A stretch of DNA of 64,000 nt from Naegleria gruberi (lineage: Eukaryota). Position numbers and translations under genes: made by a program. The stretch lies in NCBI GenBank assembly GCA_000004985.1, contig GG738860.1; one strand, given 5' to 3'. The number at the start of each line of letters is the position of its first letter. Position 1 is the first letter of the stretch. The notes under the pieces are model-generated. The model saw nothing but the letters and a program-made list of their open reading frames with translations. It was not told where the DNA came from and did not search any database. Positions 1-42,320 of this stretch are shown piece after piece.

Positions 1-1029
1 ATTCCGAATGACAAGAACAAAACCCCTACATGTAAGAATGGAAGGCTTATTACAAATACCACTACTCCTCAACAATTTGCCTCAACCAAATGTTCATGTT
101 TTAAGGGATATTCGGGAAGTGATTGTAACATACCAGTTTGTTTTGGATTGAAGGCAAGTTCAAAATCTGTATGTGGTGGCAAAGGTAACTCCAAATGTAT
201 TGCTCCAGATACATGCATTAAAATCAATGAAGCAACAATCATGAAGCGATTTCAATCCAATGCTAAAGAGGACAGTTCATGTTCCAATCGTGGTCAAATG
301 AGTAATGGTCAATGCATATGTAGTGAGGGATTCTATGGAGAATCTTGCGAATATTCTAATTGTTATGATACAGCTAGCCAGCTCACTTGTAGTGGAAGAG
401 GAGAATGCTCCTCTGATAATATTTGCACTTGTAGAGAGAATGATATGTTTGGCGATAGATGTCAATACACACTCCCAGATAAGATTTATCAAAATGATGT
501 TTGTGGGTCATGTATCATTGTGGCTGGTGTCAGTGGAGATGCTATTCCATCGAAGTATTCACTCTTGAACAATCCTACTGGACTATTTGTGGATGAAACA
601 ACTGGTTTCATCTTTTTCGCAGATCAAGGCAATGCAAAGGCAAGAGTTCTCACAAGGGATGATACTATCTATTCGATTGCCTCTGTTTCCACACCAACTA
701 GTATAGCATTCGATAAGAAAACAAGAGATGTCTATATTGGTACTAGAAATGGACTATTCAAATTGAACAGCAAGAGAGAACTCTCTAAATTGAACAGCTT
801 GTATTGTAGCAGTGTCATTGTTAATGGTCAGGGACATGTTGTGTTTACACAGGGACCATATAACAAGATTTCAAAACTTGTAAATGGTGTGCAAGTTGAG
901 GTGGCAGGGGATAATGACGGCGAAGGAAAATATGATGGTGACAACAAAGTGGCAACGGATGCAAGTGTCAACAATCCAGCTTATTTGAGCTACCATGCTG
1001 ACTCTGATACAATTTACTTTATGGACAGA
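1..1029 (+). CDS. Partial gene, with the 5' end outside the window and the 3' end in the gap at 1030-1079. It encodes an extracellular EGF-like/NHL-repeat protein that is a paralogue of the giant receptor-kinase gene downstream.
   Basis: Frame 1 is open from position 1. It contains Cys-rich modules of the form C-x-C-FKGYSGSDC-NIPVCFG and CSGRGEC...C-C, matching the repeat pattern at 12340-14010. These are followed by NHL-like beta-propeller repeats (LNNPTGLFVDETTGFIFFADQGN). The apparent C-terminal tail in the ORF track (TEWLRPYHDECTSSRPI) is read-through into the 5S rRNA gene and is not coding. Confidence 0.6.
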
Positions 1030-1079
1030 NNNNNNNNNNNNNNNNNNNNNNNNNNNNNNNNNNNNNNNNNNNNNNNNNN
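1030..1079. other. Assembly gap of 50 N (conventional unsized gap)
   Basis: Run of N. Confidence 1.
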
Positions 1080-1087
1080 AACTGAAT

Positions 1088-1207
1088 GGCTACGGCCATA
1101 TCACGATGAATGCACCTCATCCCGTCCGATTTGAGAAGTTAAGCATCGTCGAGCCACATCAGTACTGAGGTTGGAGACAACTTGGGAACCTGTGGTGCTG
1201 TAGTCTA
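1088..1207 (+). rRNA. 5S: 5S ribosomal RNA
   Basis: The sequence GGCTACGGCCATATCACGATGAATGCACCTCATCCCGTCCGATTTGAGAAGTTAAGCATCGTCGAGCCACATCAGTACTGAGGTTGGAGACAACTTGGGAACCTGTGGTGCTGTAGTCT aligns along its full length with eukaryotic 5S rRNA. Box A/C region, loop E motif AGTACT..GGGA and a closing helix that pairs the 5' and 3' ends are present. The GC content is locally much higher than the flanks, and T-rich runs follow the 3' end. Confidence 0.85.
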
Positions 1208-1723
1208 TTTAAATTCAACTTTTTAGATGTCGATTTTCAGAACAATTTGAAAGTTCAATAAACTTGTGAATAATTAATGCTTCAAAGCTTATAAAAAGTT
1301 TAACCACAATTATTAATAGATTTTAAATTAATTGAATACATAGAGAGATCAACATTCATCATTCCATAGCAATCACACTGCAATCCAACAACCAAAGGTA
1401 TCAGCAAAAGGCAACTTATGGGTTAGGGTATTCGATTGCTGTGAAGTGGGTACACTAGCTCAGTTGTCTTTTTTTCTATTTCCCAATCAATGAGTGCTTT
1501 TGGAGTATGTTGATACATTTATTATTTACAAACTTTTTTGTTACAAATTTCAATCGAAATGCCTGAGAAATTTTTTAAAATGAAAGTGCCCAATCATTGA
1601 TTATTTTCTCTATGGTTTTAAGAAATGAAACTTTGAAAATTGAATCTTAGCTAGATTACATATAATTTATCATATAATGATAAAATTAAATGTCAAATAT
1701 AGGAGATGGAGTCAAAAATTAAT

Positions 1724-1794
1724 CTCGAGTGCCGGGAATTGAACCCGGGTCGCCAGAGTGACAGTCTGGAATGCTACCACTATACCACACCCGA
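1724..1794 (-). tRNA. tRNA-Asp (anticodon GUC)
   Basis: The reverse complement folds as a cloverleaf: acceptor TCGGGTG/CACTCGA, anticodon stem CCAGA/TCTGG with loop CTGTCAC, T-arm GGGTTCAATTCCC and discriminator G. Confidence 0.9.
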
Positions 1795-2261
1795 TTTCAC
1801 ATGTTGTATCACCAGTAACAGTATTTGTAGTTGTTCAAACGGATTACCATAAAAGGAACCTTAGTGTTTCTTTTTAATATAATTATACTTACATATATGT
1901 ATACCTACTGAGAATGGATCCATACAATCGATTACTCCAACGAACTAAATTTTGAATCTGCTAATTGTCAACAAATGATATTGTTAAACAAAATACAAAC
2001 ACTATGAAATGCACAACTTCATTCTAAACATTGTATTAGAAAAATTGGAAATAGGAAAGAATCGGTAAAATTGTCTCATAGTGATTCTCTCTTGTTTATG
2101 GCCATAAATACTTTTTTGGACAGTTTCGTATGAAATTGGGTTTTGTAATATTTATTTTCTATGACATGTCATGCATAATTTCTTGTACTTGCCATCTCAA
2201 TGGCACACAAGGGTCACAACAAATTTTTTCTTCAAGAGGCACCANCTCCTTCTTGCTTGTT

Positions 2262-5200
2262 NNNNNNNNNNNNNNNNNNNNNNNNNNNNNNNNNNNNNNN
2301 NNNNNNNNNNNNNNNNNNNNNNNNNNNNNNNNNNNNNNNNNNNNNNNNNNNNNNNNNNNNNNNNNNNNNNNNNNNNNNNNNNNNNNNNNNNNNNNNNNNN
2401 NNNNNNNNNNNNNNNNNNNNNNNNNNNNNNNNNNNNNNNNNNNNNNNNNNNNNNNNNNNNNNNNNNNNNNNNNNNNNNNNNNNNNNNNNNNNNNNNNNNN
2501 NNNNNNNNNNNNNNNNNNNNNNNNNNNNNNNNNNNNNNNNNNNNNNNNNNNNNNNNNNNNNNNNNNNNNNNNNNNNNNNNNNNNNNNNNNNNNNNNNNNN
2601 NNNNNNNNNNNNNNNNNNNNNNNNNNNNNNNNNNNNNNNNNNNNNNNNNNNNNNNNNNNNNNNNNNNNNNNNNNNNNNNNNNNNNNNNNNNNNNNNNNNN
2701 NNNNNNNNNNNNNNNNNNNNNNNNNNNNNNNNNNNNNNNNNNNNNNNNNNNNNNNNNNNNNNNNNNNNNNNNNNNNNNNNNNNNNNNNNNNNNNNNNNNN
2801 NNNNNNNNNNNNNNNNNNNNNNNNNNNNNNNNNNNNNNNNNNNNNNNNNNNNNNNNNNNNNNNNNNNNNNNNNNNNNNNNNNNNNNNNNNNNNNNNNNNN
2901 NNNNNNNNNNNNNNNNNNNNNNNNNNNNNNNNNNNNNNNNNNNNNNNNNNNNNNNNNNNNNNNNNNNNNNNNNNNNNNNNNNNNNNNNNNNNNNNNNNNN
3001 NNNNNNNNNNNNNNNNNNNNNNNNNNNNNNNNNNNNNNNNNNNNNNNNNNNNNNNNNNNNNNNNNNNNNNNNNNNNNNNNNNNNNNNNNNNNNNNNNNNN
3101 NNNNNNNNNNNNNNNNNNNNNNNNNNNNNNNNNNNNNNNNNNNNNNNNNNNNNNNNNNNNNNNNNNNNNNNNNNNNNNNNNNNNNNNNNNNNNNNNNNNN
3201 NNNNNNNNNNNNNNNNNNNNNNNNNNNNNNNNNNNNNNNNNNNNNNNNNNNNNNNNNNNNNNNNNNNNNNNNNNNNNNNNNNNNNNNNNNNNNNNNNNNN
3301 NNNNNNNNNNNNNNNNNNNNNNNNNNNNNNNNNNNNNNNNNNNNNNNNNNNNNNNNNNNNNNNNNNNNNNNNNNNNNNNNNNNNNNNNNNNNNNNNNNNN
3401 NNNNNNNNNNNNNNNNNNNNNNNNNNNNNNNNNNNNNNNNNNNNNNNNNNNNNNNNNNNNNNNNNNNNNNNNNNNNNNNNNNNNNNNNNNNNNNNNNNNN
3501 NNNNNNNNNNNNNNNNNNNNNNNNNNNNNNNNNNNNNNNNNNNNNNNNNNNNNNNNNNNNNNNNNNNNNNNNNNNNNNNNNNNNNNNNNNNNNNNNNNNN
3601 NNNNNNNNNNNNNNNNNNNNNNNNNNNNNNNNNNNNNNNNNNNNNNNNNNNNNNNNNNNNNNNNNNNNNNNNNNNNNNNNNNNNNNNNNNNNNNNNNNNN
3701 NNNNNNNNNNNNNNNNNNNNNNNNNNNNNNNNNNNNNNNNNNNNNNNNNNNNNNNNNNNNNNNNNNNNNNNNNNNNNNNNNNNNNNNNNNNNNNNNNNNN
3801 NNNNNNNNNNNNNNNNNNNNNNNNNNNNNNNNNNNNNNNNNNNNNNNNNNNNNNNNNNNNNNNNNNNNNNNNNNNNNNNNNNNNNNNNNNNNNNNNNNNN
3901 NNNNNNNNNNNNNNNNNNNNNNNNNNNNNNNNNNNNNNNNNNNNNNNNNNNNNNNNNNNNNNNNNNNNNNNNNNNNNNNNNNNNNNNNNNNNNNNNNNNN
4001 NNNNNNNNNNNNNNNNNNNNNNNNNNNNNNNNNNNNNNNNNNNNNNNNNNNNNNNNNNNNNNNNNNNNNNNNNNNNNNNNNNNNNNNNNNNNNNNNNNNN
4101 NNNNNNNNNNNNNNNNNNNNNNNNNNNNNNNNNNNNNNNNNNNNNNNNNNNNNNNNNNNNNNNNNNNNNNNNNNNNNNNNNNNNNNNNNNNNNNNNNNNN
4201 NNNNNNNNNNNNNNNNNNNNNNNNNNNNNNNNNNNNNNNNNNNNNNNNNNNNNNNNNNNNNNNNNNNNNNNNNNNNNNNNNNNNNNNNNNNNNNNNNNNN
4301 NNNNNNNNNNNNNNNNNNNNNNNNNNNNNNNNNNNNNNNNNNNNNNNNNNNNNNNNNNNNNNNNNNNNNNNNNNNNNNNNNNNNNNNNNNNNNNNNNNNN
4401 NNNNNNNNNNNNNNNNNNNNNNNNNNNNNNNNNNNNNNNNNNNNNNNNNNNNNNNNNNNNNNNNNNNNNNNNNNNNNNNNNNNNNNNNNNNNNNNNNNNN
4501 NNNNNNNNNNNNNNNNNNNNNNNNNNNNNNNNNNNNNNNNNNNNNNNNNNNNNNNNNNNNNNNNNNNNNNNNNNNNNNNNNNNNNNNNNNNNNNNNNNNN
4601 NNNNNNNNNNNNNNNNNNNNNNNNNNNNNNNNNNNNNNNNNNNNNNNNNNNNNNNNNNNNNNNNNNNNNNNNNNNNNNNNNNNNNNNNNNNNNNNNNNNN
4701 NNNNNNNNNNNNNNNNNNNNNNNNNNNNNNNNNNNNNNNNNNNNNNNNNNNNNNNNNNNNNNNNNNNNNNNNNNNNNNNNNNNNNNNNNNNNNNNNNNNN
4801 NNNNNNNNNNNNNNNNNNNNNNNNNNNNNNNNNNNNNNNNNNNNNNNNNNNNNNNNNNNNNNNNNNNNNNNNNNNNNNNNNNNNNNNNNNNNNNNNNNNN
4901 NNNNNNNNNNNNNNNNNNNNNNNNNNNNNNNNNNNNNNNNNNNNNNNNNNNNNNNNNNNNNNNNNNNNNNNNNNNNNNNNNNNNNNNNNNNNNNNNNNNN
5001 NNNNNNNNNNNNNNNNNNNNNNNNNNNNNNNNNNNNNNNNNNNNNNNNNNNNNNNNNNNNNNNNNNNNNNNNNNNNNNNNNNNNNNNNNNNNNNNNNNNN
5101 NNNNNNNNNNNNNNNNNNNNNNNNNNNNNNNNNNNNNNNNNNNNNNNNNNNNNNNNNNNNNNNNNNNNNNNNNNNNNNNNNNNNNNNNNNNNNNNNNNNN

Positions 5201-8200
5201 NNNNNNNNNNNNNNNNNNNNNNNNNNNNNNNNNNNNNNNNNNNNNNNNNNNNNNNNNNNNNNNNNNNNNNNNNNNNNNNNNNNNNNNNNNNNNNNNNNNN
5301 NNNNNNNNNNNNNNNNNNNNNNNNNNNNNNNNNNNNNNNNNNNNNNNNNNNNNNNNNNNNNNNNNNNNNNNNNNNNNNNNNNNNNNNNNNNNNNNNNNNN
5401 NNNNNNNNNNNNNNNNNNNNNNNNNNNNNNNNNNNNNNNNNNNNNNNNNNNNNNNNNNNNNNNNNNNNNNNNNNNNNNNNNNNNNNNNNNNNNNNNNNNN
5501 NNNNNNNNNNNNNNNNNNNNNNNNNNNNNNNNNNNNNNNNNNNNNNNNNNNNNNNNNNNNNNNNNNNNNNNNNNNNNNNNNNNNNNNNNNNNNNNNNNNN
5601 NNNNNNNNNNNNNNNNNNNNNNNNNNNNNNNNNNNNNNNNNNNNNNNNNNNNNNNNNNNNNNNNNNNNNNNNNNNNNNNNNNNNNNNNNNNNNNNNNNNN
5701 NNNNNNNNNNNNNNNNNNNNNNNNNNNNNNNNNNNNNNNNNNNNNNNNNNNNNNNNNNNNNNNNNNNNNNNNNNNNNNNNNNNNNNNNNNNNNNNNNNNN
5801 NNNNNNNNNNNNNNNNNNNNNNNNNNNNNNNNNNNNNNNNNNNNNNNNNNNNNNNNNNNNNNNNNNNNNNNNNNNNNNNNNNNNNNNNNNNNNNNNNNNN
5901 NNNNNNNNNNNNNNNNNNNNNNNNNNNNNNNNNNNNNNNNNNNNNNNNNNNNNNNNNNNNNNNNNNNNNNNNNNNNNNNNNNNNNNNNNNNNNNNNNNNN
6001 NNNNNNNNNNNNNNNNNNNNNNNNNNNNNNNNNNNNNNNNNNNNNNNNNNNNNNNNNNNNNNNNNNNNNNNNNNNNNNNNNNNNNNNNNNNNNNNNNNNN
6101 NNNNNNNNNNNNNNNNNNNNNNNNNNNNNNNNNNNNNNNNNNNNNNNNNNNNNNNNNNNNNNNNNNNNNNNNNNNNNNNNNNNNNNNNNNNNNNNNNNNN
6201 NNNNNNNNNNNNNNNNNNNNNNNNNNNNNNNNNNNNNNNNNNNNNNNNNNNNNNNNNNNNNNNNNNNNNNNNNNNNNNNNNNNNNNNNNNNNNNNNNNNN
6301 NNNNNNNNNNNNNNNNNNNNNNNNNNNNNNNNNNNNNNNNNNNNNNNNNNNNNNNNNNNNNNNNNNNNNNNNNNNNNNNNNNNNNNNNNNNNNNNNNNNN
6401 NNNNNNNNNNNNNNNNNNNNNNNNNNNNNNNNNNNNNNNNNNNNNNNNNNNNNNNNNNNNNNNNNNNNNNNNNNNNNNNNNNNNNNNNNNNNNNNNNNNN
6501 NNNNNNNNNNNNNNNNNNNNNNNNNNNNNNNNNNNNNNNNNNNNNNNNNNNNNNNNNNNNNNNNNNNNNNNNNNNNNNNNNNNNNNNNNNNNNNNNNNNN
6601 NNNNNNNNNNNNNNNNNNNNNNNNNNNNNNNNNNNNNNNNNNNNNNNNNNNNNNNNNNNNNNNNNNNNNNNNNNNNNNNNNNNNNNNNNNNNNNNNNNNN
6701 NNNNNNNNNNNNNNNNNNNNNNNNNNNNNNNNNNNNNNNNNNNNNNNNNNNNNNNNNNNNNNNNNNNNNNNNNNNNNNNNNNNNNNNNNNNNNNNNNNNN
6801 NNNNNNNNNNNNNNNNNNNNNNNNNNNNNNNNNNNNNNNNNNNNNNNNNNNNNNNNNNNNNNNNNNNNNNNNNNNNNNNNNNNNNNNNNNNNNNNNNNNN
6901 NNNNNNNNNNNNNNNNNNNNNNNNNNNNNNNNNNNNNNNNNNNNNNNNNNNNNNNNNNNNNNNNNNNNNNNNNNNNNNNNNNNNNNNNNNNNNNNNNNNN
7001 NNNNNNNNNNNNNNNNNNNNNNNNNNNNNNNNNNNNNNNNNNNNNNNNNNNNNNNNNNNNNNNNNNNNNNNNNNNNNNNNNNNNNNNNNNNNNNNNNNNN
7101 NNNNNNNNNNNNNNNNNNNNNNNNNNNNNNNNNNNNNNNNNNNNNNNNNNNNNNNNNNNNNNNNNNNNNNNNNNNNNNNNNNNNNNNNNNNNNNNNNNNN
7201 NNNNNNNNNNNNNNNNNNNNNNNNNNNNNNNNNNNNNNNNNNNNNNNNNNNNNNNNNNNNNNNNNNNNNNNNNNNNNNNNNNNNNNNNNNNNNNNNNNNN
7301 NNNNNNNNNNNNNNNNNNNNNNNNNNNNNNNNNNNNNNNNNNNNNNNNNNNNNNNNNNNNNNNNNNNNNNNNNNNNNNNNNNNNNNNNNNNNNNNNNNNN
7401 NNNNNNNNNNNNNNNNNNNNNNNNNNNNNNNNNNNNNNNNNNNNNNNNNNNNNNNNNNNNNNNNNNNNNNNNNNNNNNNNNNNNNNNNNNNNNNNNNNNN
7501 NNNNNNNNNNNNNNNNNNNNNNNNNNNNNNNNNNNNNNNNNNNNNNNNNNNNNNNNNNNNNNNNNNNNNNNNNNNNNNNNNNNNNNNNNNNNNNNNNNNN
7601 NNNNNNNNNNNNNNNNNNNNNNNNNNNNNNNNNNNNNNNNNNNNNNNNNNNNNNNNNNNNNNNNNNNNNNNNNNNNNNNNNNNNNNNNNNNNNNNNNNNN
7701 NNNNNNNNNNNNNNNNNNNNNNNNNNNNNNNNNNNNNNNNNNNNNNNNNNNNNNNNNNNNNNNNNNNNNNNNNNNNNNNNNNNNNNNNNNNNNNNNNNNN
7801 NNNNNNNNNNNNNNNNNNNNNNNNNNNNNNNNNNNNNNNNNNNNNNNNNNNNNNNNNNNNNNNNNNNNNNNNNNNNNNNNNNNNNNNNNNNNNNNNNNNN
7901 NNNNNNNNNNNNNNNNNNNNNNNNNNNNNNNNNNNNNNNNNNNNNNNNNNNNNNNNNNNNNNNNNNNNNNNNNNNNNNNNNNNNNNNNNNNNNNNNNNNN
8001 NNNNNNNNNNNNNNNNNNNNNNNNNNNNNNNNNNNNNNNNNNNNNNNNNNNNNNNNNNNNNNNNNNNNNNNNNNNNNNNNNNNNNNNNNNNNNNNNNNNN
8101 NNNNNNNNNNNNNNNNNNNNNNNNNNNNNNNNNNNNNNNNNNNNNNNNNNNNNNNNNNNNNNNNNNNNNNNNNNNNNNNNNNNNNNNNNNNNNNNNNNNN

Positions 8201-11200
8201 NNNNNNNNNNNNNNNNNNNNNNNNNNNNNNNNNNNNNNNNNNNNNNNNNNNNNNNNNNNNNNNNNNNNNNNNNNNNNNNNNNNNNNNNNNNNNNNNNNNN
8301 NNNNNNNNNNNNNNNNNNNNNNNNNNNNNNNNNNNNNNNNNNNNNNNNNNNNNNNNNNNNNNNNNNNNNNNNNNNNNNNNNNNNNNNNNNNNNNNNNNNN
8401 NNNNNNNNNNNNNNNNNNNNNNNNNNNNNNNNNNNNNNNNNNNNNNNNNNNNNNNNNNNNNNNNNNNNNNNNNNNNNNNNNNNNNNNNNNNNNNNNNNNN
8501 NNNNNNNNNNNNNNNNNNNNNNNNNNNNNNNNNNNNNNNNNNNNNNNNNNNNNNNNNNNNNNNNNNNNNNNNNNNNNNNNNNNNNNNNNNNNNNNNNNNN
8601 NNNNNNNNNNNNNNNNNNNNNNNNNNNNNNNNNNNNNNNNNNNNNNNNNNNNNNNNNNNNNNNNNNNNNNNNNNNNNNNNNNNNNNNNNNNNNNNNNNNN
8701 NNNNNNNNNNNNNNNNNNNNNNNNNNNNNNNNNNNNNNNNNNNNNNNNNNNNNNNNNNNNNNNNNNNNNNNNNNNNNNNNNNNNNNNNNNNNNNNNNNNN
8801 NNNNNNNNNNNNNNNNNNNNNNNNNNNNNNNNNNNNNNNNNNNNNNNNNNNNNNNNNNNNNNNNNNNNNNNNNNNNNNNNNNNNNNNNNNNNNNNNNNNN
8901 NNNNNNNNNNNNNNNNNNNNNNNNNNNNNNNNNNNNNNNNNNNNNNNNNNNNNNNNNNNNNNNNNNNNNNNNNNNNNNNNNNNNNNNNNNNNNNNNNNNN
9001 NNNNNNNNNNNNNNNNNNNNNNNNNNNNNNNNNNNNNNNNNNNNNNNNNNNNNNNNNNNNNNNNNNNNNNNNNNNNNNNNNNNNNNNNNNNNNNNNNNNN
9101 NNNNNNNNNNNNNNNNNNNNNNNNNNNNNNNNNNNNNNNNNNNNNNNNNNNNNNNNNNNNNNNNNNNNNNNNNNNNNNNNNNNNNNNNNNNNNNNNNNNN
9201 NNNNNNNNNNNNNNNNNNNNNNNNNNNNNNNNNNNNNNNNNNNNNNNNNNNNNNNNNNNNNNNNNNNNNNNNNNNNNNNNNNNNNNNNNNNNNNNNNNNN
9301 NNNNNNNNNNNNNNNNNNNNNNNNNNNNNNNNNNNNNNNNNNNNNNNNNNNNNNNNNNNNNNNNNNNNNNNNNNNNNNNNNNNNNNNNNNNNNNNNNNNN
9401 NNNNNNNNNNNNNNNNNNNNNNNNNNNNNNNNNNNNNNNNNNNNNNNNNNNNNNNNNNNNNNNNNNNNNNNNNNNNNNNNNNNNNNNNNNNNNNNNNNNN
9501 NNNNNNNNNNNNNNNNNNNNNNNNNNNNNNNNNNNNNNNNNNNNNNNNNNNNNNNNNNNNNNNNNNNNNNNNNNNNNNNNNNNNNNNNNNNNNNNNNNNN
9601 NNNNNNNNNNNNNNNNNNNNNNNNNNNNNNNNNNNNNNNNNNNNNNNNNNNNNNNNNNNNNNNNNNNNNNNNNNNNNNNNNNNNNNNNNNNNNNNNNNNN
9701 NNNNNNNNNNNNNNNNNNNNNNNNNNNNNNNNNNNNNNNNNNNNNNNNNNNNNNNNNNNNNNNNNNNNNNNNNNNNNNNNNNNNNNNNNNNNNNNNNNNN
9801 NNNNNNNNNNNNNNNNNNNNNNNNNNNNNNNNNNNNNNNNNNNNNNNNNNNNNNNNNNNNNNNNNNNNNNNNNNNNNNNNNNNNNNNNNNNNNNNNNNNN
9901 NNNNNNNNNNNNNNNNNNNNNNNNNNNNNNNNNNNNNNNNNNNNNNNNNNNNNNNNNNNNNNNNNNNNNNNNNNNNNNNNNNNNNNNNNNNNNNNNNNNN
10001 NNNNNNNNNNNNNNNNNNNNNNNNNNNNNNNNNNNNNNNNNNNNNNNNNNNNNNNNNNNNNNNNNNNNNNNNNNNNNNNNNNNNNNNNNNNNNNNNNNNN
10101 NNNNNNNNNNNNNNNNNNNNNNNNNNNNNNNNNNNNNNNNNNNNNNNNNNNNNNNNNNNNNNNNNNNNNNNNNNNNNNNNNNNNNNNNNNNNNNNNNNNN
10201 NNNNNNNNNNNNNNNNNNNNNNNNNNNNNNNNNNNNNNNNNNNNNNNNNNNNNNNNNNNNNNNNNNNNNNNNNNNNNNNNNNNNNNNNNNNNNNNNNNNN
10301 NNNNNNNNNNNNNNNNNNNNNNNNNNNNNNNNNNNNNNNNNNNNNNNNNNNNNNNNNNNNNNNNNNNNNNNNNNNNNNNNNNNNNNNNNNNNNNNNNNNN
10401 NNNNNNNNNNNNNNNNNNNNNNNNNNNNNNNNNNNNNNNNNNNNNNNNNNNNNNNNNNNNNNNNNNNNNNNNNNNNNNNNNNNNNNNNNNNNNNNNNNNN
10501 NNNNNNNNNNNNNNNNNNNNNNNNNNNNNNNNNNNNNNNNNNNNNNNNNNNNNNNNNNNNNNNNNNNNNNNNNNNNNNNNNNNNNNNNNNNNNNNNNNNN
10601 NNNNNNNNNNNNNNNNNNNNNNNNNNNNNNNNNNNNNNNNNNNNNNNNNNNNNNNNNNNNNNNNNNNNNNNNNNNNNNNNNNNNNNNNNNNNNNNNNNNN
10701 NNNNNNNNNNNNNNNNNNNNNNNNNNNNNNNNNNNNNNNNNNNNNNNNNNNNNNNNNNNNNNNNNNNNNNNNNNNNNNNNNNNNNNNNNNNNNNNNNNNN
10801 NNNNNNNNNNNNNNNNNNNNNNNNNNNNNNNNNNNNNNNNNNNNNNNNNNNNNNNNNNNNNNNNNNNNNNNNNNNNNNNNNNNNNNNNNNNNNNNNNNNN
10901 NNNNNNNNNNNNNNNNNNNNNNNNNNNNNNNNNNNNNNNNNNNNNNNNNNNNNNNNNNNNNNNNNNNNNNNNNNNNNNNNNNNNNNNNNNNNNNNNNNNN
11001 NNNNNNNNNNNNNNNNNNNNNNNNNNNNNNNNNNNNNNNNNNNNNNNNNNNNNNNNNNNNNNNNNNNNNNNNNNNNNNNNNNNNNNNNNNNNNNNNNNNN
11101 NNNNNNNNNNNNNNNNNNNNNNNNNNNNNNNNNNNNNNNNNNNNNNNNNNNNNNNNNNNNNNNNNNNNNNNNNNNNNNNNNNNNNNNNNNNNNNNNNNNN

Positions 11201-11231
11201 NNNNNNNNNNNNNNNNNNNNNNNNNNNNNNN
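2262..11231. other. Sized assembly gap of 8970 N. All ORF-track entries of the form 2130..13386 that consist of X residues are artefacts.
   Basis: Run of N. An isolated N also occurs at 2245. Confidence 1.
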
Positions 11232-14200
11232 TACTGGAACAATTGCCAAAGTCTTTTCTGCTCCATACGGTGTTAAAAGCTTCCACAAACTTGAGAATGG
11301 TAATTTTATTTTCGCAGAGAAAAATTATCCTAGAATTGCCCTTTTCAAGACCAATAGCAGCAAGATTATCTACTTGGCTGGTCAATACGAACAAGGTTAC
11401 GATCCAATCGTTATTTCTGACAATGTGTTAGCAACCACAACAAGTGTGAATCATCCTCGATCACTCTATGTAAAGAATGGAGAGCTCTATTTTGCAGATA
11501 CCTACAACTCTCTCGTGAGAAAAATCACCCTCTCAACAGGAGTTCTCTCAACCATTGCTGGTAATGGAGGTGAGCGTTTTTATGGGGATGGTGGATTGGG
11601 AACGAGTGCTTCTTTGAACTATCCATATGGAATTCACTTACATACTGATGGTTCTATCTACATTGCCGATACTTACAATAGTAAGATTAGAAAGTTAGAC
11701 TCTTCCAAAAAGATTAGCTCAGTTGCTGGAAATGGATATTTGGGATATTCGGACAATACTCAACCATTGAGAGCTTCATTCAATTTGGCAGTAAGCGTTC
11801 TCATTAACAACGTAGGGGACATGTACATTTCAGATTATGCAAACAATGTAATTAGAAAGATGAGCTCCTCTGGTGCCATTACAACTATTGCTGGACAAGC
11901 AAAGATTTCTGGTTTTGCTGATAGTTTAAATGCAAAGACTGCTCTATTGAATGGTCCATTTGGATTATATTATCAGGAATCCACACAAACTCTCTTTTTT
12001 GCTGACAGTCTCAATGGTAGAATAAGAAAGCTAACAAAGAATGGAGCAATTGAAACAGTTCTTGCTTCAATTAACGATCCAAGAGAAATCTCATTCCACA
12101 CAACCCATGGTCACATGTACTTTACTTCTGGAGGTGACCAAACCATTAAGGTTCTATTCTCCAATGGTACTCTTTCTGTGCTCAACATTCCAAAAGATTA
12201 CTACATTGGTCTCCATGTTGATTCCACTAATGATTATCTCTATGCAAGTGGTTATACATACATTTATAGATTTTCCATTGCAGGAGGTAGTAGCATTGAT
12301 CACAATCAAACCGATCCAATCATCGATAACATTTCTAAGAATTGTACTAAGGGATGTGAAAAGGGTGAATGTGTGAATGGAACTTGCGTCTGTAAGGAAA
12401 ATTATGGAGGTGAAATTTGTGATAGGCCAATGTGTTTTGGAAAATTGAGCAATGAGAGTGGTGTGTGTAATACTCACGGAGTTTGTCTGCAACCAAACGT
12501 TTGCTACTGTTACGGAAATTGGGAGGCCGAAGAATGCACCCAATGTAAGAGTGGATTTACTGGTTCTAATTGCAGAACCTGTGCCGATGGTTTTGTTGGA
12601 GAATTGTGTAATATCCCTATTTGTTTCAACGTATTTGCTAATGAATCAAACGTTTGTTCTGGACATGGTTCTTGCAAATCTCCAAACAATTGTTCATGCT
12701 TTGGAAATTGGGAGGGAGAAAGTTGTCAATCTTGTAAGGAGGGATACACTGGCTCAGAATGTGACACTCCAGTTTGTTTCGGGTTCAGNNNNNNNNNNNN
12801 NNNNNNNNNNNNNNNNNNNNNNNNNNNNNNNNNNNNNNNNNNNNNNNNNNNNNNNNNNNNNNNNNNNNNNNNNNNNNNNNNNNNNNNNNNNNNNNNNNNN
12901 NNNNNNNNNNNNNNNNNNNNNNNNNNNNNNNNNNNNNNNNNNNNNNNNNNNNNNNNNNNNTGGGTTGGAGATTGTGTGATTCCTGTCAAGCTGGATACAG
13001 TGGTTCAAATTGTGATATTCCTGTTTGTTTTGGATCAAGCGTTGAAGGAGATGGTTCTTTGGTTTGCTCAGGGCACGGTAACTGTTCAGGACCAGATATG
13101 TGCACTTGTAACGAAAACTGGTCTGGAAATGATTGTTCCACTTGTAGAGAAGGTTATTATGGAGAAGACTGCTCCTCATGTACACCTGGATTCAGTGGTG
13201 AGAGATGTGACATTCCTTCATGCTTTGGTATTTCAGCAAATGCTAGTAATGTATGTTCTGGAAATGGTTATTGTTTCAGTCCAGATTTGTGCTCCTGCTT
13301 TGAGAATTGGAAGGGTGAAAGTTGTAATCAATGCAGTAGCGATTACATTGGTGAATTGTGTGATATTCCGTCCTGTTTTGGAGTGAATGGTAATGATAGA
13401 TCAGTTTGTTCTGGTCATGGCTCTTGTATTACCCCATCCAATTGTTCTTGTTTCAATAACTGGGAAGGAGCAATGTGTGAAAATTGTCCAACAGGTTTCT
13501 CTGGAGATGACTGCAAATCCTGTGACGAAAGTCACACTGGAGAGGGATGTGATGTTCCAATCTGTTACGGCCTTGCAGCTAATAATGAAAGTGTTTGCTC
13601 TGGAAATGGCAAGTGCATTGAGTCCTCTGTATGTGTTTGTTCTGGTTTTTGGACTGGAGCTAATTGTGATACTTGTCCAGAAAAGTATTCAGGATCGGCT
13701 TGTGATGTGCCAGTTTGTTATGGAGTAAGCGCTAACGATTCTATGGTTTGCTCTGGACATGGTTCTTGTGTTGCACCTTCTCAATGTTTTTGTGAAGGAA
13801 GATGGGCTGGAGAATTGTGTGATTCCTGCGTGGCTGGATATAATGGTTCAAATTGTGAAAATCCAATCTGCTTTGGAGAATTCAACACCTCTATTGTTTG
13901 TTCTGGTCATGGTTTGTGCTCAGCACTAGATGTTTGTGTGTGTAGCGAGCAATGGGCTGGAGAAACTTGTGGCAAATGTAATTCTGGATATTACGGAATA
14001 ACTTGTGAGCTTTCTTGTGATCCACAAATAGTGAAACCATCTCTCACAATCAAGCAAGGTTCAATAATTTCCTATGTGATTGGAACTTCTATTGCTTTGG
14101 AACCAGAATTGACAATTCCATTGTGCTATGCCGGTCATTTCAGCTCCATTAGCTATGGATATGCTTCTGATTTCTTTAACCAATCTCAACTGGTTCAGGT

Positions 14201-17200
14201 TGATAAATTCCTTGTCATTGGCGAATCAACCAAGAGCTCTGGAACTTTAATTTCTAACGAAGGTGAATATTCATTCAAGGTTATTGCTACACTTGGCAGG
14301 TTGGAAATTTCCACTTCCTTTGAATTTATTGTCAAGTCCAATTTGGCTTCGCTCACTCTTGATTTCAACATTCCAAATATGCTCACTCAATCCTTTGAAA
14401 AACCTTTGGAATTTGAAGTTAAAGCCTCTGATCCAAGCTTCCCTAGTGATTTAACTGAGGGTGATTTATCACTCAATTGTTGGAATCAAGATAATCAATT
14501 GGTAGAAAAGTTGGTTGACACTGTTTTCAATCATACTATTACAGTCTCAAAACAACTCAATCCAGGGCAATATGTTTGTGAAGCAACATTCAAGAAGGAT
14601 TCCAGAGTTATTACCAAGTCAATTCAGGTTGTCCTTGTTGATGTCTCTTCATCAAATGTACTCACTGTTACTCTTAAATTGGAAGGTCAAAATCCAACTT
14701 GGGTAAATCCAACAAAAGATTTGACCATATCAGCTGATATCAAAGAATCTATTGGTCCAAATGTTGTGTATGATTGGAAATCTCCATTCCAACCAATGGA
14801 TACAACTGTCTCGAATCAATTAGTTATTCCATCCAGTCAATTAGCTCTTGGAAAGAGGTATAACATTTCTCTGATTGTTACAGATGGAAGTAAGAAGGGA
14901 TTTGGATTTATTTCCTTCAAGACCTATAGTCCTCCTTCAATGGGATCATTCTCTGTTTCTCCTCTCTTTGGTTACTCTCTCACAACCAATTTCATGCTAT
15001 CTGGTGGTGTTGATTGGATTTCTTTCAATCAAGATGTCTTGACATTTACATTCATTTATAGAAGTGTAGGTTCTTTGGCATGGAAATCATTGGCTGAAAG
15101 TTCTGTTCAAACATCTCTCAATACTACTCTCCCTTCAGGAACATGGGAAACTTCAGTTTCAGTTTCCGATTCATTCTTATCATACACAATCTATGATAAA
15201 CCAGTCATAGTCCAGGTGAATACTACAGATTTAACTGTTGCTCAATTGAATTATGTTGCCTCTAATCCAATTACTCCATCAGTCATTTCTTCATTGATTA
15301 GTTATGTGAGCAGTGGTTCTTCTTCCAAGTGAAAGAACAATCAAAACAAATTGTCATGGATAGTATCAAGACATCTTTGACAAAGGAGACTCTTGACACT
15401 ACATTGACAGTTTCTTCATTGAAATCTGCCATTTCAGTTATTGATTCGGTGAGCTCAGTTGTTAATGTCTTTAGGGATAGTGAAAGTACTGTTGTTTTGG
15501 AATACTTTTCGACAGTATTACACAAGACAATATCCAATGGAATTCAAATGTCTTCTGATGATATTCAGCTATGTTTGAACTCTGCTACAAAATTTGAAGA
15601 ATTCTTCTTTGGATCAAAGAGACGAACTTCTCGTGCAGTATCTGATTCACTTGAAAAGATCACTCAGATTTATAATATTCTCACAGAAGTTCAGTTCAGA
15701 AAACTAAAGGAAGGCGAAGGCCCTTCAAGAATTTCAAGTTTATCATACTACTCGTATTGCAAATTTATGAAATCTGATTCGATTGCTCCATATTCTGATA
15801 CCATCACTCAAACTTCTCTTCAATTCTCCTTGTTGCAAGCCCTTAATACTTCAAGAGATACTTTGGGCGTTCCAGAGAATTCAATGGTATGCCTCAAGAT
15901 GTATTATGTTCAATCTTGGAGAAGTGTCATGCCAAGCTCTTATACTGTTGAGTTATCATTCTTGGATATTAAGCGTGATTATGCCTCTGTTTCAATTTCT
16001 AGTAGCCACAATATTGCAAAATTGACCATTCCAAGAATGAATACTGGAGTTGATAAGAAACAAACATGTTACCTTGTTGATACAATGAAAAAGGAAGAAT
16101 GCTCAATTTCCTCTACTAGTCCTCTTCAAATAGTTATTCAAACCACCAAGACTGGAAAATTCTTTGTTGGTTACTATGAAGATGCTGCAACGCCAATTGT
16201 TAATCCTTCCAATGGTGACGTTTCCCTCAGTGCTTTTATTGTCATATTTGCCATCATTCTTCCAATATTAGTTTGTGGTTGTATTTGTGCAGCACTTGCT
16301 ATTGTTTGTGGTTGTGCCTGTAAGAAATGGAAAGCTAGAGCAGCATTGAACAGCCATTCAATTCTCCGAAGTACTCAATCATTACCACTTCCAAATGAAC
16401 GATTGGATGTAACATTTGATGATATCAATGTCTATAATACTGGAATTAATAGTAGTCCTTTATTGCCACTCTATATTCAACCAAGTGAACTTAAACTCTT
16501 GTCGAAACTGGGAAGTGGTGGATATGGAAGTGTTCATAAGGCCTATTGGAAAGATCAACTTGTTGCTGTCAAGTCTACTCCAGTTCCAGATAACTCCAAG
16601 CAAATTGAAATTCCAAGAGAAGCTGCACTCATGTATTCATTGAAACATCCAAATATTGTTGAATGTTACGGTATTTCTATTAAGGGAAAGGAACAATTAA
16701 TTGTTATGGAATATGTTAATGGAAATTTGAATCAATTGATTGGGGATTTGTGTAGAAAATCTATCAAGATGGATTTGGATGAAAAGATTGAAATTTTACT
16801 TCAAATTGCCACTGGTATGAATTACTTGCATCAATTGAATCCTTCCATTGTTCACAGAGATTTGACTCCTGCTAATGTGTTATTTGATCCAAGAACAAAA
16901 GCTTGTAAGATTTGTGATTTTGGTCTCAGTAAGCCGCTCAACTTGGAAAATACTGAAACCAAGAATAGGAGTACCATATATTTCGTTCCTAACGAGCTTA
17001 TTTGTTGTACAGATCCAAATTTAACCAATAATCCACGTGCCATTGATGTTTACAGTTTCTCCATTCTTGCTTGGCAAGTAATCTTTGAAGACCATCCTTA
17101 TCTGTATATCAATAAGGAAAAACTCTTCTCCAACTCTAAATTCAAACACACTCCATATGTTGATGTGACCAATGACAACTTATTGGCAAGAGTTGCTACT

Positions 17201-17434
17201 GGATTGAGACCTGTCATTCCATTCAATGCTGATACAGTTTCTAAATGGACTCAAAAATTCATCAAATCCAAGTATGATAATGATTTGATAGCACTCTCAA
17301 TGATTGCCATAGCTCAACTCGTTCAAAATTGTTGGAACTTGAATCCTCATTTGAGACCCAACTTCCAAGATGTTAGTGATACATTACAAACATGCAAAAA
17401 TACTCTCTCCAGTAACCATCCTCTCTTAGTTTAA
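11232..17434 (+). CDS. Giant receptor-type protein kinase. The 5' part lies in the gap, there is an internal 172-N gap at 12789-12960, and a frame discontinuity occurs near 15305-15371. Domain order is NHL beta-propeller, about 15 EGF-like modules, a beta-rich extracellular region, one TM helix and a cytoplasmic TKL-type kinase domain.
   Basis: NHL-type repeats span 11232-12300 (YPYGIHLHTDGSIYIADTYNSKIRKL). Tandem Cys-rich modules of the form C..C..GY.G..C..P.CFG....VCSGHG.C.....C.C...W.G..C span 12340-14010. The TM segment SAFIVIFAIILPILVCGCICAALAIVCGCAC lies near 16225-16320. The kinase carries GSGGYGSVHKAYW..VAVK, HRDLTPANVLF and DFG motifs at 16480-17400, with a TAA stop at 17432-17434. 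The ORF track splits the gene into 12774..15332 and 15329..17434 because of a -1 frame change. Confidence 0.75.
12789..12960. other. Assembly gap of 172 N inside the EGF-repeat region of the receptor-kinase gene
   Basis: Run of N. Confidence 1.
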
Positions 17435-17486: not shown

Positions 17487-17560
17487 TGCCTCCCTTGGGA
17501 ATCGAACCCAAGACCTCTGTCTTACTAGGACAGCGCTACTGCCAACTGAGCTAGGAAGGC
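17487..17560 (-). tRNA. tRNA-Thr (anticodon AGU)
   Basis: Reverse complement is GCCTTCCTAGCTCAGTTGGCAGTAGCGCTGTCCTAGTAAGACAGAGGTCTTGGGTTCGATTCCCAAGGGAGGCA. Anticodon stem CTGTC/GACAG with loop CTAGTAA gives AGT, and acceptor GCCTTCC pairs with GGGAGGC. Confidence 0.9.
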
Positions 17561-22312: not shown

Positions 22313-22383
22313 GGGGGCGAGGGGGAATCGAACCCCCGGCCACAGCTTTGGAGGCTGCGATGTTACCATTACACCACCGCCCC
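22313..22383 (-). tRNA. tRNA-Trp (anticodon CCA)
   Basis: Reverse complement is GGGGCGGTGGTGTAATGGTAACATCGCAGCCTCCAAAGCTGTGGCCGGGGGTTCGATTCCCCCTCGCCCCC. Anticodon stem GCAGC/GCTGT with loop CTCCAAA gives CCA. Confidence 0.9.
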
Positions 22384-26598: not shown

Positions 26599-27591
26599 AT
26601 GAATGAACTCCATTCACAATTAAAACAATTAGAAAAATCAGAAGAAATTCTTTCGGAAAATCCACACCGTTTCACTCTCTTTCCGATTCAATATCCTAAA
26701 CTGTGGGAAATTTATAAAAAGAGATTGGCATCTTCCATTTGGAGTGTTGAACAATTTGATCAAATTATTAGAAATGACATTTCTAAATTATCGGAAATTT
26801 GCAATTCTGATCACAGTTTCATCAAGATTATTCTTGCGTTTCTTGTTGCAAATTGTAAACAGAAAACAAATCTATGGGGAGCATTCAAAGATATTCAAAT
26901 ACTAGAAGCAAAACATTTCCACGGCTTTCGGCTGGCCATGAAGAATATTCATTACGAAATGTATTGTAATCTATTCGAAATTTTAACAGAAGAAACAGAA
27001 AGAAGTGAACTAATAGAAAAAATGATCAATTCAACCATGAAGAAATCTCAATATACAAAGAAATGGCTCAATTCTGACAATTTATTTTCTGAAAGATTGA
27101 TAGGTTTAGTTTGCATTGAACAGATTTTCCTTTCTGCAAGTTTCTTTTCCATTTTTTGGCTAAAGAAGCGTGGATTAATGTCAGCTTTAACAATTTCCAA
27201 CGATTTGATTTTCAGAGATGAAGAATTTCATTCCAATTTTTTATATTCTCTATATTCGAATTTGAAACATTCTAAACTTCCTCAAACTCTCGTTCATTCA
27301 CTTGTCAAGGAAGCAGTTGACATTGAAAAGGAATTTATTACAAGTTTACCCACTGAATTGATTGAATTGGATAGAAACTCCATGTATCAGTATGTGGAAG
27401 TAGTTTCAGATAACATTCTAATTTCATTTGGTTATGAAAAACTCTTCCATACTGAAAATCAATGTTCATGGATTCAAGACATGTTAATGAACAAGTCGGG
27501 TTTCTTCTGGAAAATTGGATTAGAATCCTATTCTTCCATTCCACATTTCCCAACCATTAACAATGAATTAAAATTGGATGAAGATTTTTAA
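26599..27591 (+). CDS. Ribonucleotide reductase small subunit (R2/RNR2 family), divergent
   Basis: It aligns along its full length with eukaryotic R2: FPIQYPKLWEIYKK, AMKNIHYEMY, IEQIFLSASFFSIFWLKKRGLM, RDEEFH, and a C-terminal R1-binding tail ending ...NELKLDEDF that resembles mouse ...NSFTLDADF. The ExxH ligand Glu is Lys in AMKNIH. The first Asp ligand appears to be Asn in LAFLVANC. Confidence 0.85.
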   Translation: MNELHSQLKQLEKSEEILSENPHRFTLFPIQYPKLWEIYKKRLASSIWSVEQFDQIIRNDISKLSEICNSDHSFIKIILAFLVANCKQKTNLWGAFKDIQILEAKHFHGFRLAMKNIHYEMYCNLFEILTEETERSELIEKMINSTMKKSQYTKKWLNSDNLFSERLIGLVCIEQIFLSASFFSIFWLKKRGLMSALTISNDLIFRDEEFHSNFLYSLYSNLKHSKLPQTLVHSLVKEAVDIEKEFITSLPTELIELDRNSMYQYVEVVSDNILISFGYEKLFHTENQCSWIQDMLMNKSGFFWKIGLESYSSIPHFPTINNELKLDEDF

Positions 27592-39562: not shown

Positions 39563-39690
39563 ATTCTCTGGAGAATAAAAACAATTGTATTTTTAAAGTA
39601 AAATAACCTTCATAAAATTGTTGTAATAAAGGAAATGAAATCATTGTTTTGGGAAAAGGAAACCAGGTTGCTAAACACCAGATAATTAAA

Positions 39691-39779
39691 AGGCGACTGA
39701 GGGAATTGAACCCTCGACCCTCAGTTATCTCAGCATTACTGCCTACAAGACTGATGCACTACCACTGTGCTAAGCCGCC
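39691..39779 (-). tRNA. tRNA-Thr (anticodon UGU) with a 17-nt intron at the canonical position between 37 and 38
   Basis: Reverse complement is GGCGGCTTAGCACAGTGGTAGTGCATCAGTCTTGTA[GGCAGTAATGCTGAGAT]AACTGAGGGTCGAGGGTTCAATTCCCTCAGTCGCCT. The exonic sequence closely resembles eukaryotic tRNA-Thr(UGU): anticodon loop CTTGTAA, variable loop GGGTC and discriminator T. Confidence 0.8.
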
Positions 39780-40497
39780 TTACATGTAACTGAAAACATT
39801 TTAACATACATACAATATCAACACCAACCTTTATCGGCCAAGTGAACCAACGTTGAATGTTTTAATGATAATAATATTCTTATAGGGAAAATAATGTTAT
39901 GAAACATCAGATTTATACTTTAGATATTGCTTGAATAATGTATGAAGATATGAAATTCACACCACCACCTTGGAAATATGATTTTTCAGAAGCTTTTTGG
40001 ATGGAACACAGATCTTGAAATCAAATCGATTCACTTTCGTTTCATTTGACTATGGTGGAATGAAATTTTTGATAAGTGTAAAAGTTGAACTTTGGATTTG
40101 AAAATAATATTATTGCTTGCCATTCAATTCGTTTTGATTTGTTCATTGATTGTATTGGTATTAATCTGTTCCATGTCTATTGTGTGAAAGAGAGAAGGAA
40201 AGGAACAAGACACCACAATAAATTGAATACTCAACATTCAATAGACAATTTGTAAATTAAAATTGATCAAAACGTACTTTACACTATTTTACACTATAAT
40301 TTCAATTAAACTTTTCAAATTCCTTTCCAAAATTATTATTCCGAATATTTCTCCCATTTCCTTTCCTTGAAATTACAAAACATCACAAAAAAATAGAACA
40401 AAGTTGCAACTAGATTTATTTAATTTCTTCTGCATGAAACTCTATCTCTCAAGATCCTTCTAGAAAAAAGAGAGATCATCACAAGTAGATAAAGACA

Positions 40498-42237: not shown

Positions 42238-42320
42238 GCCCGCGTAGCAGAGTGGTCAAATGCGTAAGACTTAAGATCTTATCCCGAATGGGTTCGTGGG
42301 TTCGAACCCCACCGCTGGCA
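42238..42320 (+). tRNA. tRNA-Leu (anticodon UAA), class II with a long variable arm
   Basis: GCCCGCGTAGCAGAGTGGTCAAATGCGTAAGACTTAAGATCTTATCCCGAATGGGTTCGTGGGTTCGAACCCCACCGCTGGCA. Anticodon stem TAAGA/TCTTA with loop CTTAAGA. D-arm and T-arm as in eukaryotic tRNA-Leu(UAA). Confidence 0.85.

Follow-up and report, generated by a model that had tools for sequence, protein, structure and literature searches.

The 64-kb stretch of Naegleria gruberi DNA analysed here (hereafter the window) carries near its beginning a complete 5S rRNA gene which, judged from the sequence and with a probability of about 0.85, is an ordinary chromosomal gene, predicted to be functional, from this organism's large family of dispersed 5S genes (Table 1). 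The Rfam model RF00001 matches it on the plus strand over its entire length (model positions 1-120 of 120) with 105.4 bits, compared with a gathering threshold of 38, and an E-value of 4.4e-22. An earlier note on this DNA had proposed a full-length 120-nt gene at 1088-1207 and named a covariance-model scan of that segment as the test; the 5S scored well above the threshold and its full length is borne out, whereas the model ends at 1206, which makes the gene 119 nt long. The cmscan alignment flags no non-canonical pair (standard pairs run throughout helices I-V), and the minimum free energy (MFE) fold of the 119 nt is the canonical three-helix junction, at -41.5 kcal/mol and z = -2.6 against shuffled sequences. 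Inside the gene, position 50 holds an exact match to the box A pattern and position 80 a box C-like element with two mismatches to a pattern that is vertebrate-derived; the intermediate-element pattern matched 11 times and is too loose to inform. Behind the gene, ATTT occupies +1 to +4 and TTTTT +15 to +19, and T-runs were present downstream of all seven Pol III genes examined. BLAST detected no additional copies or fragments of either the 5S or the neighboring tRNA-Asp gene in the 64-kb window, and a permissive Rfam scan of 1080-2261 gave no RNA family beyond 5S and tRNA, apart from chance-level matches to bacterial sRNAs that overlap the tRNA.

In the scheme that we propose, Pol III would transcribe the 5S gene from an internal control region formed by box A at +50 and the box C-like element at +80, an upstream TATA-like element, which for this copy is hidden in an assembly gap, would probably assist, and termination would occur at the T-runs immediately downstream. 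The two mismatches in box C, and the finding that N. gruberi yielded no TFIIIA (PMC3369914), make it uncertain what role the internal control region plays. That the gene, intact though it looks, is in fact a silent pseudogene, as might be suspected from an upstream promoter lying out of sight in the gap, from the T at position 24 where an environmental copy has A, and from the fragments and low-similarity copies in the published 5S table (15 matches shorter than 110 nt; PMC3369914 Table S1), seems to us very unlikely: the score of 105.4 bits is essentially that of the environmental relative (106.3), position 24 is the single nucleotide in which the two genes differ and sits in an unpaired loop, and the base pairs, box A and terminator are all intact.

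The dispersal of 5S genes in N. gruberi is already in print, and the gene of the window is an ordinary copy belonging to this known family. A survey published in PLoS One in 2012 listed 279 putative 5S genes in the JGI assembly, unlinked to the rDNA, and described an internal control region, a TATA box and T-run terminators for them (PMC3369914). Our genome-wide picture is the BLASTn table of that paper (Table S1), whose coordinates were re-analysed, and not a covariance-model scan. Its 279 matches are spread over 117 scaffolds and reach at least 110 nt in 264 cases; the match length is 117 nt in 235. Neighbors on the same scaffold are separated by a median of 33.8 kb, with only two spacings below 1 kb and 23 below 3 kb, and 198 of the copies (71%) have no listed neighbor within 10 kb. 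The family is dispersed with some loose kilobase-scale clusters, and the label “tandem: Y”, given to the 5S arrangement in the same paper, conflicts with the paper's own coordinates. The window, with one 5S gene in 64 kb, fits the dispersed pattern. Its 5S was compared with the table as a family, without being tied to one row, and agrees with the published genes in species, gene length class, T at -1, internal control region, T-run terminators and dispersed context. Dispersed 5S genes are also known from fungi, for instance Neurospora crassa (about 100 copies) and Schizosaccharomyces pombe (about 30), and the likeness extends to single scattered Pol III units that stand between protein-coding genes and are unlinked to the large rDNA; N. 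gruberi differs in having more copies (about 280) and in that the large rRNA genes of Naegleria are not chromosomal. Since Naegleria's rDNA plasmids, which are extrachromosomal, carry 18S, 5.8S and 28S only and no 5S, chromosomal 5S genes are to be expected (PMC12482156).

Table 1. Features of the window and of the environmental contig L001, with positions on the respective sequence.
Feature	Positions	Strand	Evidence and remarks
Left coding fragment: teneurin-like EGF modules, then NHL-like region, cut by gap	1..1029	+	Pfam EGF_Teneurin, EGF_2; BLASTP
Mechanical ORF of 328 aa running through the N gap into the 5S (artefact)	148..1134	+	ORF list
50-N scaffold gap between left coding fragment and 5S contig	1030..1079	.	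N-run count
Sole remaining 5' flank of the 5S, 8 nt	1080..1087	+	AACTGAAT; 50-N gap upstream of it
5S rRNA gene, full length, 119 nt	1088..1206	+	Rfam RF00001, MFE fold, box A
Putative Pol III termination region of the 5S	1207..1225	+	ATTT, then TTTTT at 1221-1225; function inferred from sequence
T5 run, probable Pol III terminator, 6 nt past the tRNA-Asp 3' end	1713..1717	-	minus strand ATTAATTTTTGAC; function inferred
tRNA-Asp, anticodon GTC, 71 nt	1724..1794	-	ARAGORN; Rfam tRNA 57.1 bits; convergent with 5S
8,970-N scaffold gap, right bound of the 5S/tRNA contig	2262..11231	.	N-run count
Right gene, receptor kinase: NHL, many teneurin-like EGF, REJ, TM, protein kinase	11233..17434	+	Pfam, ORFs
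tRNA-Thr(AGT)	17487-17560	-	Rfam/ARAGORN; 53 nt past receptor kinase stop codon
tRNA-Trp	22313-22383		Rfam/ARAGORN
Intron-containing tRNA	39690-39780	-	about 19 extra nt immediately 3' of anticodon (canonical intron position)
tRNA-Leu(TAA)	42238-42320		Rfam/ARAGORN
L001: 5S, singleton, environmental Naegleria-like	539-657	-	RF00001 106.3 bits
L001: alpha/beta-hydrolase ORF	823-1908	+	divergent; start codon 165 nt from 5S

The flanks of the gene could be compared with one further locus. A metagenome scan with Naegleria-specific 5S yielded a sole contig of 1,964 bp (L001), our only flank comparator, and no match was obtained from bacterial and archaeal genome contigs or from viral contigs scanned with two Naegleria-specific 5S segments. 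The 5S of this environmental contig has a TATA-like TTATAGAA at about -23 to -16, in agreement with the TATA box described for N. gruberi (PMC3369914), and it is followed by TTT at +1 and TTTT at +13, an arrangement like that behind the window 5S. Its 5' flank reads AAGTAGAT where the window has AACTGAAT, with T at -1 in both, and no tRNA adjoins it.

The earlier note had asked whether the 5S copies are dispersed singletons or belong to a 5S-associated element. The first half is answered by the published dispersal (PMC3369914), whereas for the second the 1,055 nt 3' of the window 5S matched neither the environmental contig nor any other part of the window significantly, the best hit having an E-value of 0.07 over 16 nt, in a comparison with a single comparator and with the 5' flank missing. 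A mobile or retroposed element, SINE-like or cassette-like and possibly including the tRNA, could in principle have spread the 5S, and such an origin would suit the high copy number and wide dispersal, the uniform match length (117 nt in 235 of 279) and a contig break that falls directly at the gene's 5' edge. We regard it as highly improbable, given the lack of flank similarity just described, with its one comparator, a 5S that is full length with all helices intact, the want of any poly(A) or LINE-like tail, and the environmental 5S that stands without a tRNA beside it. What follows the window 5S is Pol III T-runs only, with no A-rich, poly(A) or LINE-like tail. 5S-derived SINEs, such as SINE3 of zebrafish, combine a 5S head with a LINE-related tail; the window 5S shares with them a dispersed 5S-like Pol III promoter sequence, and it differs in being complete with helices I-V, in having no tail and in that no shared flank was found. 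A retroposed 5S copy was rejected on the same three grounds of tail, intactness and flank.

The tRNA-Asp gene lies 517 nt beyond the 5S on the opposite strand (1207 to 1724), as the earlier note had it and as ARAGORN and Rfam agree. It folds into a cloverleaf with a GUC anticodon, and its B-box, read from the sequence, is GGTTCAATTCC. With its own A and B boxes (a standard type 2 promoter) and T5 terminator, it would be an independent Pol III unit. The description of the two genes as a Pol III gene island finds no support, because the spacing is expected by chance: the 54.8 kb of real sequence contain six Pol III genes (the 5S and five tRNAs), and six random points in 54.8 kb gave a closest pair no farther apart, start to start, than the observed one in 30% of trials (P = 0.30). 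The closeness of 5S and tRNA would reflect a high density of Pol III genes in the short intergenic regions of a compact genome. Tight packing of Pol III genes among protein genes is also seen where tRNA-Thr(AGT) follows the kinase stop codon at 53 nt. The intron-containing tRNA is called Thr(TGT) by ARAGORN in bacterial mode. In the spacer between 5S and tRNA-Asp, at 1448-1475 on the plus strand, GGGTACACTAGCTCAGTTG followed by T7 resembles a tRNA acceptor/D-arm half with a terminator; it received no Rfam score even at permissive thresholds and is probably a chance resemblance or a decayed remnant.

The 5S-tRNA pair is very probably neither a functional nor a mobile unit, and its members are independent transcription units. 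Being on opposite strands, convergent and each provided with a T-run terminator, the two genes cannot be co-transcribed. Dicistronic tRNA-5S genes reportedly occur in Yarrowia lipolytica, where the absence of TFIIIA is said to go with tRNA-driven 5S transcription. The resemblance to that yeast is a 5S near a tRNA in a genome where TFIIIA was not found; unlike there, the tRNA of the window is downstream, antisense, 517 nt off and separately terminated, without fusion. No tRNA directly upstream of the 5S on the same strand and without an intervening terminator was found, the visible upstream sequence being the 8 nt before the gap. A functional Pol III unit of 5S and tRNA-Asp, co-regulated or dicistronic after the manner of Yarrowia, can appeal to the distance of 517 nt and to the absence of a reported TFIIIA, which in Yarrowia reportedly accompanies tRNA-driven 5S transcription, and still is hardly credible against a proximity that lies within chance (P = 0.30) and an environmental 5S without a tRNA within 1.3 kb upstream.

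Both genes sit on a contig of 1,182 bp (1080-2261) that is bounded by gaps on the left and on the right. The N runs of the window are 1030-1079 (50), 2245 (1), 2262-11231 (8,970) and 12789-12960 (172); its GC content is 33.7% and its coding style is intron-poor, both in keeping with N. gruberi. The earlier note had placed the 5S immediately 3' of a truncated receptor paralogue. However, the left fragment is broken off by an assembly gap partway through an NHL-like repeat and the adjacency comes from scaffolding; since the contig is bounded by gaps, truncation and adjacency are properties of the scaffold and not of the chromosome. The apparent place of the pair behind a truncated receptor would result from a 1.18-kb contig scaffolded between two gaps.

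We consider it unlikely, though with a real chance of being true, that this contig is misplaced or mis-sized, lying elsewhere or several kilobases from the left fragment, and the two coding regions may even both belong to one long receptor gene. Several observations point that way: the contig has an N gap at either end (50 N on the left, 8,970 N on the right) and begins only 8 nt before a repeat of about 280 copies, low-coverage read ends are suggested by the single ambiguous base at 2245, close to its right end, the left ORF is interrupted in an NHL-like repeat and could not complete a receptor built like the right-hand one (at least 6.2 kb) within 50 nt, no gene model for either coding region turned up in the searched proteome, and the published table contains many tiny scaffolds with a 5S near the end (PMC3369914 Table S1). 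A weak argument to the contrary is an ATG at 2130 (+), from which a signal-peptide-like ORF extends into the 8,970-N gap; it shares its strand with the receptor downstream, as would be expected if the contig were correctly placed and oriented. On one of the tiny scaffolds in the table, scaffold_975, the 5S match (9-125) starts at base 9, the same 8-nt offset as from 1080 to 1088; this could be a redundant copy of the locus, an effect of the assembler at a repeat boundary, or a coincidence. We give little credence to a further reading, in which the roughly 280 near-uniform 5S genes would have been spread and homogenised by active copying of a promoter-plus-gene cassette with its 5' edge a few nucleotides upstream, together with TFIIIA-free transcription from the TATA box. 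If it were true, the contig break 8 nt upstream and the 8-nt offset of scaffold_975 would mark the cassette boundary.

The two flanking coding regions had been taken as the products of a Pol II gene duplication. Residues 169-342 of the left fragment are similar to the NHL region of the right gene in BLASTP; the identity between left and right is 27-35% and is confined to the EGF/NHL repeat modules, and the domain order is opposite, with EGF before NHL on the left and NHL, EGF, REJ, TM and kinase on the right, which speaks against that description. A recent (tandem) receptor duplication was rejected on the identity of about 30% and the non-collinear domains. The resemblance is of the kind expected for distantly related members of one family, or the two regions may even belong to a single long gene, about 10 kb between them being unsequenced. 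The 5' part of the right gene lies in the 8,970-N gap, and its reading frame changes at about 15330, through an intron or a frameshift. A protein search with the left fragment returned no match at E <= 1e-10, and the kinase ORF of the right gene had no self match in the searched protein collection, which includes another N. gruberi protein of the window. The ORF at 2130-2261 (+) opens with MKLGFVIFIFYDMSCIISCTC and runs into the large gap; on weak grounds, this may be where the receptor-kinase gene downstream actually begins, in which case tRNA-Asp would be divergent from the kinase gene by 335 nt.

Runs of N have also left their mark on the ORF list. The mechanical ORF that crosses the 50-N gap ends in ...YFMDR, 17 X and TEWLRPYHDECTSSRPI before its stop codon, and the last 17 residues are translated from 7 nt of flank followed by 5S positions 1-47; the claim that this tail is gained from the 5S across the gap was confirmed, as it is mostly 5S plus those 7 nt. 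The same artefact recurs on a larger scale in six phantom ORFs, 3,018-3,728 aa long and lying on both strands of 2130-13386, in which nearly every residue is an X contributed by the 8,970-N gap. As an annotation trap, the effect exists in the mechanical ORF list, whereas no matching public protein was found in the searched proteome for either flanking receptor. Elsewhere in the window, the ORF 26599-27591 (+) encodes a ribonucleotide reductase small subunit with 100% identity over 330 aa to a “predicted protein [Naegleria gruberi]”. Its best non-self matches are metagenome proteins at 46% identity, and plant and Bacteroidota proteins follow at 38-41%. On sequence comparison, this is an unusually isolated sequence for so conserved an enzyme.

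False protein tails arise when an ORF list is translated through N's, as with the 17-residue tail here and the six phantoms of about 3,000 aa, and claims of neighborhood or truncation beside scaffold gaps should not be taken as biology. The locus itself adds little biology, since it is a further member of a 5S family already described as dispersed, next to an ordinary tRNA gene, and it brings nothing new on 5S dosage relative to rDNA plasmid copies. In Naegleria the chromosomes retain no rRNA genes other than those for 5S, whose dosage must therefore match thousands of rDNA plasmid copies.
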